This document shows positions 2,991 to 16,073 of a DNA stretch of 24,000 nt, piece after piece. The notes under the pieces are model-generated. The model did not search any database, was not told the origin of the DNA, and was given only the letters and a program-made list of their open reading frames with translations. The stretch is from an uncultured Eubacteriales bacterium (GTDB taxonomy: Bacteria > Bacillota > Clostridia > TANB77 > UBA1234). The position numbers were made by a program, and so were the translations under genes. Numbering within the stretch: position 1 is the first letter of the stretch; every line of letters begins with the position of its first letter. The stretch spans positions 9,184-33,183 of the forward strand of contig CAYNRR010000015.1 of the NCBI GenBank assembly GCA_964400015.1, read 5' to 3'.

Positions 2991-3017
2991 TTAGCACTCC
3001 GAAATTTTAAGTGCTAA
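2991..3017 (+). promoter_or_regulatory. CIRCE operator 2 (HrcA binding site)
   Basis: TTAGCACTC-N9-AAGTGCTAA, one mismatch to consensus. It lies between the promoter and the hrcA start. Confidence 0.85.
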
Positions 3018-3037
3018 ATATGGGGGAAGGTGATAAA

Positions 3038-4096
3038 ATGCTTTTAGATGATCGCAAAAAGCGTATTTTAGAAGCTGTTATCGAAGAATATAACGCCACT
3101 GCAGAACCGGTTGGTTCAAGCAAGATTGCAAACGATTACAACTTAGGTTTTAGTTCTGCAACCATCAGAAATGAGATGGCAAGCTTGGAAGAGCTTGGTT
3201 ACTTGGAACAACCACACATATCAGCAGGTAGAATACCTTCAAGTCAAGGATACAGGTTTTATATCGATTCGATAATGCAAGAAAAAAACTTGTCGGCTCA
3301 AGAAAAGAAAGTGATAGATGAAATCTTAAAAGAAGATGTAATAAAATTAGAAACTTTAATAAAAGATGCATCTAATATTTTAGCAAAACTTACAAACTAC
3401 GCTTCTATAGCAATTGGTCCGCAAATGACAAATTGTAAAGTAGAAGAAATTAAACTTGTAAAACTTGGGCATGATAGATTGATGATAGTTATTTTAGCAG
3501 ATAATGGTGTCATAAAAGAAAGTATTATCAAATATGATGGTATGCTTCCAGAAGAAAACATTGAGATTTTCAATACTTATTTAAATCATAGTCTAAAAGG
3601 AATGAATTTCGAGCAAATATATCAAAATATAAATGCATACGTTGAAAACGAACTATATAATATTAGCACGAATGTTATTCCATTAGTTAATGAACTAAAT
3701 AATTTATTGATAGACAAAGATGTAGAATTTCATATGGAAGGTGCTAAAAACTTATTAAGCTTGCCCGAAATGAAACAAGAAAATACATTGAAAAATTTTT
3801 TAAATATTATAGAAACTCAGGATGCGTTAAAAGAAATTGTTAAAAATGGTTATGACGGAAATATAAATGTTTATATAGGTCAGGAAAATGCATTTGAAGA
3901 TTTAAAAGATTTTACAATTATTACATATAAACAAAAGATAAATGACAAAGAGCTTGGTACAATTGGGTTAATTGGACCAAAAAGAATGGATTACAAGAAA
4001 GTTATTCCTGTAATTAAATATGTAGGCGATGTATTACAAGAGAAAATGAAACAAGGAGGAAATTTTGATGACGAACAAGACGGAACAAAACAATGA
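3038..4096 (+). CDS. hrcA: heat-inducible transcription repressor HrcA
   Basis: ORF 3011..4096. The ATG at 3038 (MLLDDRKKRILEAVIEEY) has GGAAGGTGA upstream. It has the N-terminal winged-helix pattern of HrcA, is the first gene of the CIRCE-controlled operon and is followed by grpE-dnaK-dnaJ. Confidence 0.9.
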   Translation: MLLDDRKKRILEAVIEEYNATAEPVGSSKIANDYNLGFSSATIRNEMASLEELGYLEQPHISAGRIPSSQGYRFYIDSIMQEKNLSAQEKKVIDEILKEDVIKLETLIKDASNILAKLTNYASIAIGPQMTNCKVEEIKLVKLGHDRLMIVILADNGVIKESIIKYDGMLPEENIEIFNTYLNHSLKGMNFEQIYQNINAYVENELYNISTNVIPLVNELNNLLIDKDVEFHMEGAKNLLSLPEMKQENTLKNFLNIIETQDALKEIVKNGYDGNINVYIGQENAFEDLKDFTIITYKQKINDKELGTIGLIGPKRMDYKKVIPVIKYVGDVLQEKMKQGGNFDDEQDGTKQ

Positions 4097-4580
4097 AGTG
4101 CAAAATGAGGAGGTTCAAGAAGTTTCAGTTGCAAGTCTACAAGAAGAACTTGAAAAACTAAAAGCTGAAAACGAAAAGTATTATGATCATTTGCAAAGAA
4201 CAGCTGCAGAATTTGATAATTACAAAAAAAGAGTGTCAAAGGAAAAAGAAAAAATTTATAATTTGGCAGTAGGGGATGTAATTACAAAATTCATTTCCGT
4301 ATTAGACAACTTAGAAAAAGCAACGTTAGCAGAATCAACAGATGAAAAACTTAAAGAAGGCGTTGAATTGATATACAAACAAATGGCTGATTTGTTTACA
4401 GGATTAAATGTTGAAAAAATAGCAACTTTAAAAGAAGAATTTAATCCAGATTTGCATGATGCAGTAATGCATGTTGAAGATAAAGAGTATGGCGAACAAG
4501 AAGTAATCGAAGAACTAAGAAGTGGTTACAAAATGGGCGATAGAGTGTTAAGACATGCAATGGTTAAAGTCGCAAACTAA
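4068..4580 (+). CDS. grpE: nucleotide exchange factor GrpE
   Basis: ORF 4065..4580. The ATG at 4068 lies 7 nt after AAGGAGGA. It has a coiled-coil N-terminus and a GrpE-like C-terminus (GYKMGDRVLRHAMVKV), and its operon position fits. Confidence 0.9.
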   Translation: MTNKTEQNNEVQNEEVQEVSVASLQEELEKLKAENEKYYDHLQRTAAEFDNYKKRVSKEKEKIYNLAVGDVITKFISVLDNLEKATLAESTDEKLKEGVELIYKQMADLFTGLNVEKIATLKEEFNPDLHDAVMHVEDKEYGEQEVIEELRSGYKMGDRVLRHAMVKVAN

Positions 4581-4593
4581 TAAAAATATATAG

Positions 4594-6477
<1,884 letters not shown>

Positions 6478-10740: not shown

Positions 10741-13449
10741 ATGGGATTTTTAAAAAAATTATTTCCTTCATACAGTGAAAGGGAAATCAAAAAAATAAAG
10801 CATTACGTTGATGAAATCAATGCACTAGAGCCAACAATGGAAGCTTTATCAGATAAAGAACTACGTGCAAAAACAGATGAATTTAAGAAAAGATTACAAG
10901 AGGGCGAAACATTAAATGATATATTAGTAGAGGCATACGCAACTGTTCGTGAAGCTTCAAAAAGAGTATATGGAAAGAGACCATTTGATGTTCAGCTTAT
11001 GGGTGCAATAATATTACATCAAGGCAGAATTTCAGAAATGAAAACAGGTGAAGGAAAAACATTAACAGCTTCAATCGCCTTATATTTAAATGCACTAGAA
11101 GGAAAAGGTGCTCACCTAGTTACGGTAAATGACTATCTTGCTAAATCGCAAGGTGAAGAAATGGGTAAATTGTATAATTTCTTAGGACTATCTGTAGGTA
11201 TAATAATAAATGGATTAGAACCAAGAGAAAGAAAAGCTGCATATGCTGCTGATATTACTTATGGAACAAATAATGAATATGGATTTGACTACTTAAGAGA
11301 TAATATGGCTATATATAAAGAAAACATGGTTCAAAGAGAATTGAATTATGCGATTGTCGATGAAATAGATAGTATCCTAATCGATGAAGCACGTACACCA
11401 CTTATTATTTCTGGACCATCAGATAAAGCCAATGACTTATATAAAACAGCAGATGCATTTGTTAAAAAGCTAAAATTTAAAGTAATCACTAAAGATGATA
11501 CTAAGCAAGAAGAATCTGAAGAAGATAAAGAATACGACGCAATCGTAGACTTAAAAGCACGTAGAACTACTTTAACTTCAACAGGTACATCAAAAGCTGA
11601 AAAACATTTTGGTGTTGAAAATTTATCTGATATAGAGAATACGACTCTTTTACATCATATAACAAAAGCACTTGATGCTAATGGCATCATGAAGAGAGAC
11701 GTTGACTATATCGTAAAAGATGGCGAAGTACTAATAGTAGACGAACATACAGGAAGAATCATGTATGGTAGAAGATATAGTGATGGACTACACCAAGCTA
11801 TTGAAGCAAAAGAAAATGTAAAAATAGAAAACGAAAATAAAACACTTGCTACAATAACATTCCAAAACTATTTCAGATTATATAATAAATTATCTGGTAT
11901 GACTGGTACAGCATTAACAGAAGAAACAGAATTTAGAGAAATATACGCATTAGATGTTGTAGAGATACCTACTAATAAGCCAATGATTAGAAAAGATCAT
12001 AACGATGTTGTATACAAAACAGAAAGAGCGAAATTAAGACATGTTATAGAAGATATCAAAGAAAGCAATCAAAAAGGACAACCTGTATTAGTTGGTACAA
12101 CAACAGTTGAAAAATCAGAATACCTTAGCGATTTATTAAAGCGTGAAGGTATTAAGCATGAAGTATTGAATGCAAAATATCATGAAAAAGAAGCTGAAAT
12201 TGTAGCACAAGCAGGTAAATTTGGAGCTGTTACAATTGCAACAAACATGGCAGGTAGAGGTACAGACATAATGCTTGGTGGTAACACAGAAGCATTAGCA
12301 AAACACGAATTAAAGAAACGTGGCTATCCAGAAGATGCTATATTAGAAGCAGTTAGCTTAAATGATACAGAAGTGCCAGAAATACTAGAAATAAGAAAAG
12401 AATACAAAGAAATATATGACAAACTAGACCAAAAAGTTCAAGAGGATAGAAAGAAAGTTATTGAAGCCGGTGGATTAAAAATCATTGGTACAGAACGTCA
12501 TGAATCTAGAAGAATAGATAACCAGCTTCGTGGACGTAGTGGACGTCAAGGTGACGTAGGTGAATCAAGATTTTATATTTCGCTAGAAGACAAGTTAATG
12601 AAACTATTTGGTGGTGACCGAATTCAAATGGTTGCTAACGCAATAAAAATGGATGAAGACATGCCACTTGAAATGGGAATGTTAACAAGTACAATAGAAA
12701 CAGCACAAAAGAATGTAGAATCAATTCACTATAGTGCAAGAAAGAACACATTACAGTACGATGATATTATGAACGACCAAAGAAAGATTATATACACAGA
12801 CAGAAGAAAAGTACTAGATGGCAAAAACATGAAATCGGATATTATGAAAATGATAAGCCAAACAATTCAAAGTGCTGTAGACTCATATTTTGGAATAGAT
12901 GTAACAACTGAAAATGAAGAAGAATTCTTAATGTACGTAAGAAATCTATTAGGAATAGAATATACATTAGATTCATCAAAAACACCAGAGGCAATAGTTG
13001 AAGACTTAACTAATAAAGCAATCGAAATATACGAAGCAAAAGAAAAAGAAATTGGTGAAGCTCAACTTAGAGAAATAGAAAGAATCATAATTTTAAGAAC
13101 AGTAGACACAAAATGGATAGATCACCTAGATGCAATGGATCAATTAAAAGAAGGGGTTAGACTAAGAGGTTATGCACAAAAAGATCCAGTAGTTGAATTT
13201 AGAATGGAAAGTTATGATGTATTTAATGAAATGACTGCAGGAATAGCAGAAACAGTAGTAAGATCAATAATGCACATACAAAAAAGAAACGAGAACATGG
13301 AGAGAGTTAACGTTATCAAAAAAATGATAACAAACATGAATGCGGCAGCAAATGCAGCATCAGAAAAAGCAAAACCAAAAGTAAATTCAAGCAAAGAAAA
13401 AGTTGGTAGAAATGATCCATGCCCATGCCGGAAGTGGAAAGAAGTATAA
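10741..13449 (+). CDS. secA: preprotein translocase ATPase SecA; the C-terminal zinc motif is cut off by a 1-nt frameshift (the intact frame would end at 13474)
   Basis: MKTGEGKTL Walker A, VDEIDSILIDEARTPLIISG, TNMAGRGTDI and LRGRSGRQGD motifs. The ORF ends ...GRNDPCPCRKWKEV*, while the +1 frame from 13430 reads GSGKKYKKCCGKDE*. Confidence 0.95.
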   Translation: MGFLKKLFPSYSEREIKKIKHYVDEINALEPTMEALSDKELRAKTDEFKKRLQEGETLNDILVEAYATVREASKRVYGKRPFDVQLMGAIILHQGRISEMKTGEGKTLTASIALYLNALEGKGAHLVTVNDYLAKSQGEEMGKLYNFLGLSVGIIINGLEPRERKAAYAADITYGTNNEYGFDYLRDNMAIYKENMVQRELNYAIVDEIDSILIDEARTPLIISGPSDKANDLYKTADAFVKKLKFKVITKDDTKQEESEEDKEYDAIVDLKARRTTLTSTGTSKAEKHFGVENLSDIENTTLLHHITKALDANGIMKRDVDYIVKDGEVLIVDEHTGRIMYGRRYSDGLHQAIEAKENVKIENENKTLATITFQNYFRLYNKLSGMTGTALTEETEFREIYALDVVEIPTNKPMIRKDHNDVVYKTERAKLRHVIEDIKESNQKGQPVLVGTTTVEKSEYLSDLLKREGIKHEVLNAKYHEKEAEIVAQAGKFGAVTIATNMAGRGTDIMLGGNTEALAKHELKKRGYPEDAILEAVSLNDTEVPEILEIRKEYKEIYDKLDQKVQEDRKKVIEAGGLKIIGTERHESRRIDNQLRGRSGRQGDVGESRFYISLEDKLMKLFGGDRIQMVANAIKMDEDMPLEMGMLTSTIETAQKNVESIHYSARKNTLQYDDIMNDQRKIIYTDRRKVLDGKNMKSDIMKMISQTIQSAVDSYFGIDVTTENEEEFLMYVRNLLGIEYTLDSSKTPEAIVEDLTNKAIEIYEAKEKEIGEAQLREIERIIILRTVDTKWIDHLDAMDQLKEGVRLRGYAQKDPVVEFRMESYDVFNEMTAGIAETVVRSIMHIQKRNENMERVNVIKKMITNMNAAANAASEKAKPKVNSSKEKVGRNDPCPCRKWKEV

Positions 13450-13482
13450 AAAGTGCTGTGGAAAAGATGAATAATATATAAT

Positions 13483-13519
13483 ATTAAAGGCTAGTATAAC
13501 ATTCTATACTAGCCTTTTT
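13483..13519 (+). repeat. direct repeat copy 1, also the secA rho-independent terminator
   Basis: ATTAAAGGCTAGTATAACATTCTATACTAGCCTTTTT. The stem is AAAGGCTAGTATA/TATACTAGCCTTT plus a T-run. It is identical to 14380-14416. Confidence 0.9.
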
Positions 13520-13709
13520 GTATTGAGAAGAAACCAACAGTTGTACTGGTGGTAAAGAAGATTTAGAGCTATGCAGAGAAACTTAATGATGCAAGTAAAA
13601 TATTCAATCAATTATATGATACATGAGAATAATAGACTAATGATTTGTTATCATATATTTTTGTGAGAGTTAATACAGACACCAGAGATAAATAATTGGA
13701 ATTCTGATA

Positions 13710-13738
13710 TTGACATATAGTCCGTATATACTTATAAT
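13710..13738 (+). promoter_or_regulatory. perfect-consensus sigma-A promoter
   Basis: TTGACA (13710-13715), a 17-nt spacer, then TATAAT (13733-13738). It lies about 60 nt upstream of the ORF at 13802. Confidence 0.65.
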
Positions 13739-13801: not shown

Positions 13802-14191
13802 TTGCAATATATAACAAATTTAGATAGAAAGAAGTTAGGCATATATGAGAGTAAGTTAATAACAGAAGAAGTGATTTTAACAGACGAAAGATTATACAAA
13901 CACATTCTTTTGTTTCACGAAGAAGAGTATAAACAATTAAAGCCATATATAAAAAGTATAATTGAAGAACCAGATTACATAGTTGAAGATAATAGAAACG
14001 AAGATACTATGATATACTTAAAAGAAATTAGTGATATTGGTAAAAATGGCAGAGTTGTTGTAAAATTGGCATTAGGAAAAGATAAAACACATAATAAAAA
14101 TTCGATTATTACATTGATGAAATTGAATAAAAGAACATGGAATCAAACTATAAAAAATAGAGGAAATATAATTTGGAAGACTAGAAACTAG
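13802..14191 (+). CDS. hypothetical 129-aa protein, possibly a PBECR-type (Barnase-EndoU-ColicinE5/D-RelE fold) nuclease-like domain
   Basis: TTG start 5 nt after AGAAGGTAG. The pattern LTDERLYKHILLFHEEEY...IKSIIEEPDYIVED...NEDTMIYLK...GRVVVKL....KNSIITLMK resembles, from memory, small phage or conjugative-element PBECR nuclease-fold proteins. This is not verified by an HMM. Confidence 0.45.
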   Translation: MQYITNLDRKKLGIYESKLITEEVILTDERLYKHILLFHEEEYKQLKPYIKSIIEEPDYIVEDNRNEDTMIYLKEISDIGKNGRVVVKLALGKDKTHNKNSIITLMKLNKRTWNQTIKNRGNIIWKTRN

Positions 14192-14217
14192 ACAAAAGTG
14201 AATAAAAGATGTATAAT
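14189..14217 (+). promoter_or_regulatory. near-consensus sigma-A promoter overlapping the ORF stop codon
   Basis: TAGACA (14189-14194), a 17-nt spacer, then TGTATAAT (TATAAT at 14212-14217, extended -10). Confidence 0.55.
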
Positions 14218-14223
14218 AAAAAT

Positions 14224-14358
14224 ACACTATGAGTAGGTTATTTGAAGTGGACAATAGTGCCATCCACACACCCTAGTGGTCAAAAGAGATGCAGGATTTG
14301 GCACACCTGCCAAATAACCAGTATGATAAAAGAGCTATGATAACATAGCTCTTTTATT
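14224..14358 (+). ncRNA. candidate structured small RNA (about 130 nt), class unknown
   Basis: It has its own promoter. There is a 9-bp long-range helix (14236-14244 with 14311-14319), an inner hairpin GTGGA/TCCAC (14247-14251 with 14263-14267) and an alternative perfect 8-bp hairpin ATTTGGCA-CACC-TGCCAAAT (14296-14315). Intrinsic terminator AGAGCTATG-ATAA-CATAGCTCT plus a T-run (14328-14358). No credible ORF. Confidence 0.45.
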
Positions 14359-14379
14359 GAAGTGCAAACAATAGAAAAC

Positions 14380-14416
14380 ATTAAAGGCTAGTATAACATT
14401 CTATACTAGCCTTTTT
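14380..14416 (+). repeat. direct repeat copy 2 (terminator hairpin)
   Basis: 37/37 identical to 13483-13519. Confidence 0.9.
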
Positions 14417-14968: not shown

Positions 14969-16073
14969 ATGTTTGAACTTGAAGAATTACTTCAACAAAT
15001 AAAAATATTTGAAAACAAATTAAAAGAATTGAGTGAATCTCTTTGACATAAAATCAAAGGAACAAGCATTAAAAGATTTAGAAACACAAACGCAAGAAAC
15101 AGAATTTTGGAATGATAGCGAAAATTCTACAAAAGTTTTACAAAAAATAAAAACATTGAAAGATAAAATCGCAGGTTTTATTTCTTTAAATAATTTAATA
15201 AATGACACAAAAGGAATAATTGAACTTAGTCTTGAAGAAAAGGAAGAATCTATGATTCAAGAAGTGAAATCATCAGTTAAGCAAATAGAAAAGCAATTAG
15301 AAAAATTAGAAATTTCAAATTTGCTTTCGGGCAAACACGATGCAAGCAATGCAATTATTACAATTCATCCAGGAGCAGGAGGAACTGAATCACAAGATTG
15401 GGCTGAAATGTTATATAGAATGTATTCAATGTGGGCAGATAAAAATGGTTATAAATTGGAAGAATTAGATTACTTAGATGGAGATGTTGCAGGAATAAAA
15501 AGCGTTACATTTAGTATTATAGGAGATAATGCATACGGTTATTTAAAAGGCGAAAGTGGAGTACATAGACTAGTTAGAATTTCTCCGTTCGATTCTGCTG
15601 GAAGAAGACATACATCATTTGCATCAGTCGAAGTAATTCCAGAAGTATCAGATGATTTAGATATTCAAATAAATCCAGAAGATTTAAAAGTAGATACATA
15701 TCGTTCAAGTGGTGCAGGAGGACAACATGTAAACAAAACAGAATCGGCAATCAGAATAACACACATCCCAACAAACATAATAGTATCTTGTCAAACACAG
15801 CGTTCACAAATTCAAAATAGAGAAAAAGCAATGAAAATGTTAATCTCAAAGTTAATGGAATTAAAAGAACTCGAGAACAAAGAAAAAATAGAAGACTTAA
15901 AAGGAGTACAAAGAGAAATCGCATGGGGAAGTCAAATACGTTCATATGTATTTTGCCCATACACACTAGTAAAAGATCATCGCACAAATCATGAAACAGG
16001 AAACGTAGAAGCTGTAATGAACGGCGAACTAAACGACTTCATCGACGCCTTCTTACGCAGGGACGTCCGTTAA
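14969..16073 (+). CDS. prfB: peptide chain release factor 2, programmed +1 frameshift: join(14969..15043,15045..16073)
   Basis: A short frame, MFELEELLQQIKIFENKLKELSESL, ends at UCU CUU UGA C (CUU 15041-15043, UGA 15044-15046). The main frame continues DIKSKEQ... It carries the SPF motif (RISPFDSAGRRHTSF) and the GGQ motif (SSGAGGQHVNK). Confidence 0.95.

Follow-up and report, generated by a model that had tools for sequence, protein, structure and literature searches.

A skipping-rope RNA gene behind a PBECR2-domain gene in a clostridial genome, a candidate RNA antidote shared with phage MuF loci

Skipping-rope RNA is one of four highly conserved motifs with 3' Rho-independent terminators described by Weinberg et al. 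in 2017 (PMC5737381), and has counted since then among several well-conserved orphan RNAs of bacteria and phages. As far as the main text of that paper goes, the motif is rare in possible 5' untranslated regions (UTRs), does not self-cleave and is given no function; a 'compelling association' with a nearby protein gene is stated there for three motifs jointly. Here we describe a member of this family in the genome of an uncultured Eubacteriales bacterium, on a 24,000-nucleotide (nt) stretch of contig CAYNRR010000015.1 (assembly GCA_964400015.1; hereafter the window, by which the whole stretch is meant), where it directly follows the gene for a small protein with a PBECR2 domain. Through a comparison covering some 390 related loci we examine the pairing of gene and RNA, and weigh the proposal that the RNA is an antidote to the protein.

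The closest described systems are of two kinds. In type III toxin-antitoxin (TA) systems, that is ToxIN, CptIN and TenpIN, an endoribonuclease toxin is countered by a dedicated, pseudoknotted RNA and not by a protein. Free-standing antidote RNAs are also known in phages, where pseudo-ToxI sets the precedent for type III. In the polymorphic-toxin loci of phage MuF proteins, immunity genes sit directly 3' of the toxin domain (PMC5576092, PMC12226406), and PBECR domains, according to Iyer et al. (2017), occur either as stand-alone proteins or at the C-terminus of phage MuF, portal and polyvalent proteins (PMC5512222).

The structured RNA at 14237-14318 is a member of the skipping-rope family. Its match to RF02924 takes in the full length of the model (65.4 bits against a gathering score of 36.7, E = 6.6e-14) and is the sole above-threshold match of the whole window in Rfam 15, where the family is classed as a small RNA (sRNA) gene. 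The module of gene and RNA comprises these features:

13710-13738, + strand: promoter-like site of the open reading frame (ORF), TTGACA-17-TATAAT, 12/12
13802-14191, + strand: gene for a stand-alone PBECR2-domain protein of 129 amino acids (aa), a predicted RNase of the BECR type and putative toxin, with a TTG start after a GAAGG ribosome-binding site and a TAG stop
14189-14217, + strand: RNA promoter TAGACA-17-TATAAT, 11/12, the TAG of its -35 element being the ORF stop codon
14237-14318, + strand: skipping-rope RNA core (Rfam RF02924, model positions 1-80 of 80)
14237-14244/14311-14318, + strand: P1, the closing helix, which encloses three hairpins
14247-14251/14263-14267, + strand: P2 (GTGGA/TCCAC)
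14269-14273 with 14277-14280 and 14286, + strand: P3
14291-14295/14306-14310, + strand: P4 (GCAGG/CCTGC)
14257-14261/14300-14304, + strand: pseudoknot formed by the loops of P2 (GUGCC) and P4 (GGCAC)
14326-14357, + strand: intrinsic terminator hairpin with perfect 14-nt arms (14326-14339/14344-14357), an ATAA loop and a short T-run

The fold was examined in a MAFFT alignment of 24 diverse homologues, with 500 shuffles and slid alignments as controls. Across the proposed helices 93.7% of cells are paired and 18 of 27 pairs vary on both sides, values of which neither is reached by any of the 500 shuffles, while the slid alignments pair at 27-46%. The pseudoknot, which we take to be part of the published consensus, pairs in 95% of cells and shows changes on both sides at three of its five pairs. 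P3 is the weakest helix, at 75% paired, in part through misaligned insertions. All elements of the four-helix fold with its pseudoknot are supported by covariation. The minimum free energy of the window copy is -43.1 kcal/mol (z = -5.08), and none of 200 shuffled sequences folds as well. Many unpaired nucleotides are invariant besides the pseudoknot, and conservation resides in the structure and a few junction nucleotides, without a long single-stranded seed.

A first-pass annotation of the window had proposed a structured RNA at this place, with a 9-bp closing helix (14236-14244/14311-14319) around a GTGGA/TCCAC hairpin, and had suggested a test for covariation. Both helices are present, as P1 and P2, both covary, and the test upholds the fold as a whole; P3, P4 and the pseudoknot had been overlooked. 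A second fold, built on a hairpin at 14296-14315 and held to exclude the first, has not survived: that hairpin can form in the window copy, and across the alignment 64.7% of its cells pair against 65.2% in shuffles, with no covariation. The motif CACACC does occur twice, as had been noted (14267-14272 and 14302-14307), and its second copy is not kept as such among the homologues. The belief that the arrangement was undescribed must be given up, since the RNA is a catalogued Rfam family whose terminator and gene association were published in 2017. The Rfam search that the annotation had suggested names the RNA, and explains it by half, because the family comes with no function.

Other candidate identities were tried. 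The window holds no transfer RNA (tRNA) or transfer-messenger RNA (tmRNA), and the remaining Rfam families gave sub-threshold chance matches, such as the DUF805 RNA motif (19.8 against 51.1 bits). This weak match lies at 14176-14243 and shares UAUGAGUAGG, immediately 5' of P1, with that motif; it is probably due to chance. The 13 nt between the predicted transcription start and P1 are fairly well conserved among the homologues (TACAATAtaAGtAG).

The RNA has signals of its own at both ends. Promoter-like hexamers occur at chance level in the AT-rich DNA of the window (10 found, 9.9 expected from shuffles), and the bases preceding the -10 element form no canonical extended -10; hence the promoter call rests on conservation. 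TTTACA or TAGACA, a 17-nt spacer including GAATAAA, and TATAAT recur about 20 nt 5' of P1 at the majority of 173 non-redundant loci. Most clades have TTTACA within the codons for a C-terminal Leu-Tyr-Lys, whereas in the clade of the window the frame stops at the TAG of TAGACA, so that the site is kept although the reading frame ends differently, and is therefore conserved as DNA. Transcription is predicted to start near 14224. The terminator escaped a consensus scan because its T-run (TTTTATT) is short and partly absorbed into the stem; homologous loci keep the same hairpin 3' of the RNA, with a longer T-run. Promoter and terminator together predict an sRNA of about 135 nt. No terminator separates ORF and RNA, hence the messenger RNA (mRNA) of the ORF should carry the RNA at its 3' end too, and the same hairpin is predicted to close both the sRNA and the read-through transcript. 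Both signals had been put forward in the first-pass annotation, and its view of a discrete, structured non-coding RNA gene that is no cis leader agrees with our results.

The ORF matches the Pfam family PBECR2 (PF18810) with 39.3 bits against a gathering threshold of 27.1 (E 8.5e-10); it also passes the threshold of PBECR3 (33.7 against 30 bits) and has a weaker match to MuF_C. These three are its only Pfam matches, and none is to ToxN, CptN or TenpN. Its AlphaFold2 model is confident (pLDDT 95.1). Among homologues H34, P57 and N100 are invariant, and T27, H39, D58, T69, K74, S101, T104 and Y125 nearly so; H34 falls within a predicted helix (28-55), and S101 and T104 within a predicted strand (100-108). 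On the strength of the model, the window protein fits the pattern of conserved residues described for PBECR domains by Iyer et al. A search of 1.84 billion representative proteins returned 510 relatives, in which the PBECR2-like region is always C-terminal, either as a stand-alone protein of about 125-135 aa or as the end of MuF-type proteins of about 450-600 aa. Matches in BFVD, a viral structure library, are MuF minor capsid proteins, MuF-C domains and polyvalent proteins, and the one matching PHROGs family has no function assigned. PADLOC and NCBIfam hold no model that matches the ORF. The TTG start is conserved in the clade of the window.

A sub-clade of stand-alone proteins (L019, L021, L022, L024, L026, L029, L031, L032, L034, L036 and L040) ends in ...NRRKNHMEK or ...NRREDYLEK instead of ...NRGKIIWKK. 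The frameshift responsible removes the last predicted strand, including the nearly invariant aromatic residue at 125; the RNAs of these loci are intact, at about 94-98 bits.

The association of gene and RNA was approached from both sides. Searches with the protein, for which subsets of closer homologues were used, gave 146 loci: 66 from genomes, with 33-90% protein identity to the window ORF, and 80 viral loci of MuF type. In these the RNA was sought with a covariance model built from the 24 aligned homologues, and it was detected in 141 of the 146, counting copies cut by a contig end or a deletion, which bears out the first-pass suggestion that the RNA is specifically tied to a nuclease-like ORF. 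Among genome loci 63 of 66 have the RNA, starting no more than about 80 nt from the stop codon on the same strand; of the three misses, two result from contig ends, and at L055 the gene survives as an N-terminally truncated remnant, the same genome also having an intact module, L046. Among viral loci 78 of 80 have it, the misses being one contig end and L213, where a 2.2-kb insertion separates gene from RNA. Wherever the protein-found loci could be assessed, the RNA lies about 30-80 nt 3' of the gene on the same strand, with the truncated remnant as the exception. No intact ORF without an RNA was met among the loci examined. In L030, a single deletion took the 3' end of the ORF together with the 5' half of the RNA.

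Locus L009, on the same contig as L213, gives a view of that insertion (within the region 3001-5692): the 2.2-kb sequence splits the PBECR2 domain of a phage MuF gene, and is followed by a second, partial copy of the domain (residues 79-120) and the RNA.

Seen from the RNA, the association is looser. Loci found with one sequence pattern, and retained if non-redundant and with enough flanking sequence, comprised 66 viral and 62 metagenomic examples. PBECR2 lies directly upstream on the same strand in 38 of the former and 35 of the latter; on the opposite strand or 3' of the RNA it was found in none of them. In the other 28 viral and 27 metagenomic loci PBECR2 was not found anywhere, which puts the share of orphan RNAs at some 43%, an approximate figure in that it derives from one RNA pattern and from a PBECR2 profile that may miss divergent partners. 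Orphan RNAs follow genes for Bro-N, ThiF, MuF with DUF6883, or MuF with another C-terminal domain, and at several of them the promoter and the final codons of the vanished gene are still present. Furthermore, an intact RNA, scoring about 53-98 bits in our own covariance model, is still present at no fewer than 10 loci whose ORF is truncated or has an internal deletion. Hence the gene always has the RNA, the RNA is often without the gene, and decay is one-sided.

In phages the RNA lies 3' of the C-terminal PBECR2 domain of MuF proteins, at a fixed place in the head-gene operon, and has its own constitutive-type promoter and its terminator within these late operons. Fusions of MuF and PBECR2 are common among the homologues; in L001, for example, the RNA comes after an ORF of 495 aa that ends in a PBECR2 domain. 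Some loci contain arrays, in which two to three diverged RNA copies stand under one promoter and one terminator (L295, L077, L238). Such a transcript would need to be processed, or would act as a multi-domain RNA.

Tandem arrays were seen at L295 (550-858), L077 (2452-2642), L238, L240, L253 and L256, with 12-30 nt between copies, and each copy has its own compensating pseudoknot sequence. At two other loci, L110 (MuF with DUF6883) and L096 (MuF with another C-terminal domain), a skipping-rope RNA stands 167-225 nt 3' of a MuF gene that ends in a toxin domain other than PBECR2, which is consistent with replacement of the toxin domain that left the old RNA in place.

The identity and anatomy of the RNA gene are secure, and a position after a PBECR2 gene is its standard place in our samples. 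As to what it does, sequence comparison gives roughly even prospects to the reading that the RNA is an antitoxin or immunity factor for the PBECR2 domain. The protein would be a toxic endoribonuclease, and the RNA a dedicated antidote that binds it directly and blocks it, in a manner akin to a type III antitoxin or a polymorphic-toxin immunity factor. With its internal promoter the RNA would outnumber the protein, whose TTG start would make for poor translation; such an excess would follow from a dedicated RNA promoter coupled with a conserved, weak start codon. In phages, the RNA, as a self-contained unit of the late operon, would shield a lysogen both against the MuF-fused PBECR2 domain and against the same domain injected by related phages, and copies without a gene would act as stand-alone immunity. 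We favour an antidote because the gene is never without the RNA while the RNA is often without the gene and dead genes keep live RNAs; because the RNA occupies the position of the immunity gene in MuF loci and stays there after the toxin domain has been swapped; because arrays of diverged copies resemble immunity-gene arrays; and because the window module, which lies on a small islet, has no protein antidote beside it.

Several observations weigh against this reading. The antitoxin idea, already voiced in the first-pass annotation, fits the comparative evidence, and its toxin half is a prediction, since the nuclease label is drawn solely from a computationally defined Pfam family. Against the Protein Data Bank (PDB), a Foldseek search with the model found nothing significant (best E = 0.25; a contact-dependent inhibition (CDI) toxin stands at rank 18 with a non-significant probability of 0.16), and a sequence profile found no significant match either. 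Many 'toxins' of the large frameshifted sub-clade may, from their sequence, already be inactive. The proportion of orphans carries the latitude given above, and many phage loci are near-duplicates of each other. Known type III antitoxins are short tandem repeats 5' of the toxin gene, and are processed by the toxin, in contrast to one elaborate fold of 80-100 nt 3' of the gene here. Full-text literature searches returned no functional paper on skipping-rope RNA or on PBECR proteins. Weinberg et al. regard conservation of this sort as typical of a 'sophisticated biochemical function' (PMC5737381), which may mean more than a simple inhibitor.

The main rival, which we judge unlikely, makes the RNA a positive partner of PBECR2, be it cofactor, scaffold, guide or preferred substrate, in a working RNA-protein complex, where it might direct or activate the RNase or be packaged with MuF in the phage head. 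Strict linkage and fixed geometry would follow from such a role, and the invariant unpaired nucleotides and the pseudoknot suit a specific protein-RNA complex. The complementary loops of P2 and P4 could in principle also pair between molecules, as in the pRNA of phi29. MuF, moreover, resides inside the phage head and is ejected from there into the host (PMC5512222). What a positive role explains is the linkage; it does not explain the orphan RNAs or the one-sided decay, since a cofactor deprived of its enzyme should degenerate too, and intact RNAs remain beside decayed genes. The constitutive-type promoter and terminator within late operons point to expression in the lysogen rather than to head assembly, and the arrays of diverged copies fit immunity better. 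If, on the other hand, the RNA were an independent, trans-acting sRNA of mobile elements with targets in the host, and its adjacency to PBECR2 mere linkage, then it would be readily understood that it stands by itself at many sites in phages and chromosomes, behind Bro-N, ThiF and other genes, that it has its own promoter and terminator, and that Rfam classes it as an sRNA gene. We consider this improbable, because linkage cannot account for the way in which essentially every PBECR2 gene of the clade, across 33-90% identity and in stand-alone as well as MuF-fused forms, has the RNA on its own strand and no more than about 80 nt past its stop codon. The want of a long single-stranded seed also tells against it, and the diversity of hosts argues against one shared base-pairing target.

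Two further readings have very little probability. One regards the RNA as a cis element of the ORF transcript, either a 3'-UTR stabiliser or a two-state switch (P1 against 14296-14315) for termination or expression, or, in a variant, a type I-like antisense regulator of the ORF translation start. It draws on the read-through transcript, which ends with the RNA, and on the alternative hairpin that the window copy can form. This reading has already been largely refuted by the conservation of the RNA promoter, by the result for that hairpin and by the RNAs that persist without the ORF; furthermore, complementarity to the translation start is not significant (-26.1 kcal/mol against -20.5 +/- 3.6; 23 of 300 shuffles are as good), and the rarity of the motifs in possible 5' UTRs and the lack of self-cleavage, stated in the main text of Weinberg et al. 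(PMC5737381), are at odds with it. The other, equally remote, holds that the RNA or its DNA hairpins help the islet to move, by providing a structure that is recognised or used for priming when insertion takes place at terminators. The module does spread horizontally without a recombinase of its own; in the window it stands between two copies of a terminator, and in L016 and L018 the terminator of secA is a copy of that of the module. Yet the duplicated sequences are the terminators and not the RNA core, the covariation is that of a folded, pseudoknotted RNA and not of a DNA site, and in phages the RNA keeps its fixed place in the head operon with no sign of independent insertion.

Within its own family, the window RNA shows no structural difference: helices and pseudoknot are the same, a terminator follows at the 3' end, one specific gene is adjacent, and both phages and Firmicutes-type genomes carry the family. 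In terms of genome annotation, the locus is an unexceptional case of a catalogued RNA family, in the setting usual for it. As far as checked, our comparison goes beyond the published main text in naming the partner as PBECR2, in showing that the order is always gene then RNA on one strand, with a conserved promoter overlapping the gene end, and in finding that the gene always has the RNA and the RNA not always the gene; some of this may already be stated in the supplement of Weinberg et al. The Drum motif and the motifs DUF3800-I to DUF3800-XI of the same study are likewise structured orphans that go with a single nearby protein gene, 3' terminators being present in the main ones. They differ in structure and partner protein, and an Rfam scan of the window gave no match to any of them.

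By analogy, type III TA is the system most similar in its working. Besides the pairing of an endoribonuclease, which here is a predicted one, with a dedicated, pseudoknotted RNA and no protein antitoxin, it has in common with our loci an RNA that is expected in excess, carriage by mobile elements and phages, free-standing RNAs in phages and, in some loci here, tandem RNA arrays. The window module is not a member, since its RNA is neither repetitive nor upstream, no terminator separates the two genes and the protein family is another. Type III toxins belong to the ToxN, CptN and TenpN families, whereas Pfam assigns our protein to PBECR2; their RNAs consist of direct repeats of 34-45 nt 5' of the toxin gene, in contrast to a single four-helix fold of 80-100 nt, which in the window is one non-repetitive RNA of 82 nt 3' of the ORF. 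Even where homologous loci have two or three diverged copies, these too lie 3' of the gene, unlike type III. An intervening terminator sets the ratio of RNA to toxin in type III, a task that would here fall to the internal promoter at 14189-14217. Type I TA differs in that its RNA is antisense to the toxin mRNA, whereas this RNA shares the strand of the ORF, lies clear of it and has no significant complementarity to its translation start. The likeness to MuF polymorphic toxins and polyvalent proteins (Jamet et al. 2017, PMC5576092; Iyer et al. 2017, PMC5512222) is one of context: the window ORF has homologues that form the C-terminus of MuF proteins, and the RNA, like orphan immunity genes, directly follows the toxin domain, stays after domain swaps and forms arrays. 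The position of the immunity gene is filled, however, by an RNA and not by a protein, and the window copy is a stand-alone domain in a non-phage, housekeeping region.

We tentatively put forward, as a broader possibility that we hold to be somewhat less than evenly poised, that PBECR2 domains are RNase toxins to which the structured, non-repetitive skipping-rope RNAs are the antidotes, the two forming a new class of module with the toxin first, the RNA second and an internal promoter, and the first RNA-based immunity in phage MuF loci. The comparison makes the function of an orphan RNA directly testable, with a protein of 129 aa and an RNA of about 135 nt. If the antidote reading is true, type III would be joined by another kind of RNA antitoxin, structurally unrelated to it, an activity could be assigned to the PBECR2 family, toxins borne in phage heads could be countered by RNA, and free-standing RNA copies would be portable immunity against toxins injected by phages.

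The window as a whole is a housekeeping region that runs through dnaK, dnaJ, rsmE, yicC and remA to secA, followed by an islet of about 0.86 kb, a minus-strand ORF for a small membrane protein, prfB and polC. The islet, between secA and prfB, holds the PBECR2 gene and the RNA, and is bounded by two copies of a direct repeat:

13470-13519, + strand: 50-nt direct repeat, left copy, of which 37 nt (13483-13519) are identical in the right copy; it contains the hairpin that terminates secA and forms the left edge of the islet
14367-14416, + strand: 50-nt direct repeat, right copy, which repeats the secA terminator hairpin and closes the islet on the right

Neither a recombinase nor a plausible ORF for a protein antitoxin is present in the islet. 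From just 5' of the ORF to the terminator, the DNA of the module is 81-87% identical between genomes in which SecA is 50-62% and PrfB 59-76% identical; since identity of the module is above that of its neighbours, gene and RNA spread horizontally as one two-part unit. Similarity to the closest locus (L011) begins at 13707, and the segment 13521-13700 is not kept in other loci. Many copies of the module sit 3' of secA, and the terminator that follows secA in L016 and L018 is a copy of the module's own. A pattern bridging the empty site had 0 matches in metagenome contigs; consequently insertion of the islet is inferred solely from the flanking repeat and the mismatch in identity. Taken together, the repeats suggest insertion at terminators. 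Exact-protein look-ups with the window ORF and the neighbouring membrane protein found no match on record.

PBECR2-RNA modules are often flanked by two copies of a hairpin, which in the window is that of the secA terminator. The copies of the module terminator after secA lie at about 3815-3840 in L016 and at 3886-3901 in L018, and in L040, L056 and L028 the module is flanked by other repeats, of 36-53 nt.

The end of secA has some peculiarities of its own (region 13425-13474). Its frame stops early (...DPCPCRKWKEV*, stop at 13447-13449), and a shift of one base after TGC-C near 13430 restores the zinc-binding tail of SecA, GSGKKYKKCCGKDE*, ending at 13472-13474. This apparent 1-nt insertion just 5' of the islet could be a sequencing error or a real frameshift. 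The last 80 nt or so of secA (13398-13477) have 75-87% DNA identity to the secA ends of the genomes of L014-L038 and L061, whose SecA proteins are just 50-62% identical overall, and the rest of the secA query of about 150 nt had no blastn match. A similar piece of the secA end, 48-56 nt in length, stands 3' of the modules in L012 and L022. The shared end could reflect conserved coding sequence for the zinc finger, or co-transfer with the islet.

On the far side of the islet, prfB starts at the ATG at 14970, as against the GTG at 15033 of a mechanical ORF list, and has CTT TGA C, the classical site of programmed +1 frameshifting, at about 15040-15046. Lastly, a conserved promoter-like element, TTGAATTTAATTTATATATATGATACAAT, recurs beside modules in other genomes: it is found in L016 at 3904-3921 and 4587-4604, and 3' of the module in L032 and L036, where it precedes an ORF that starts MDNA(D/N)GDIIIYQTDDGLTKI.... 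This suggests that in these genomes the region 3' of secA is a hotspot for small accessory genes.

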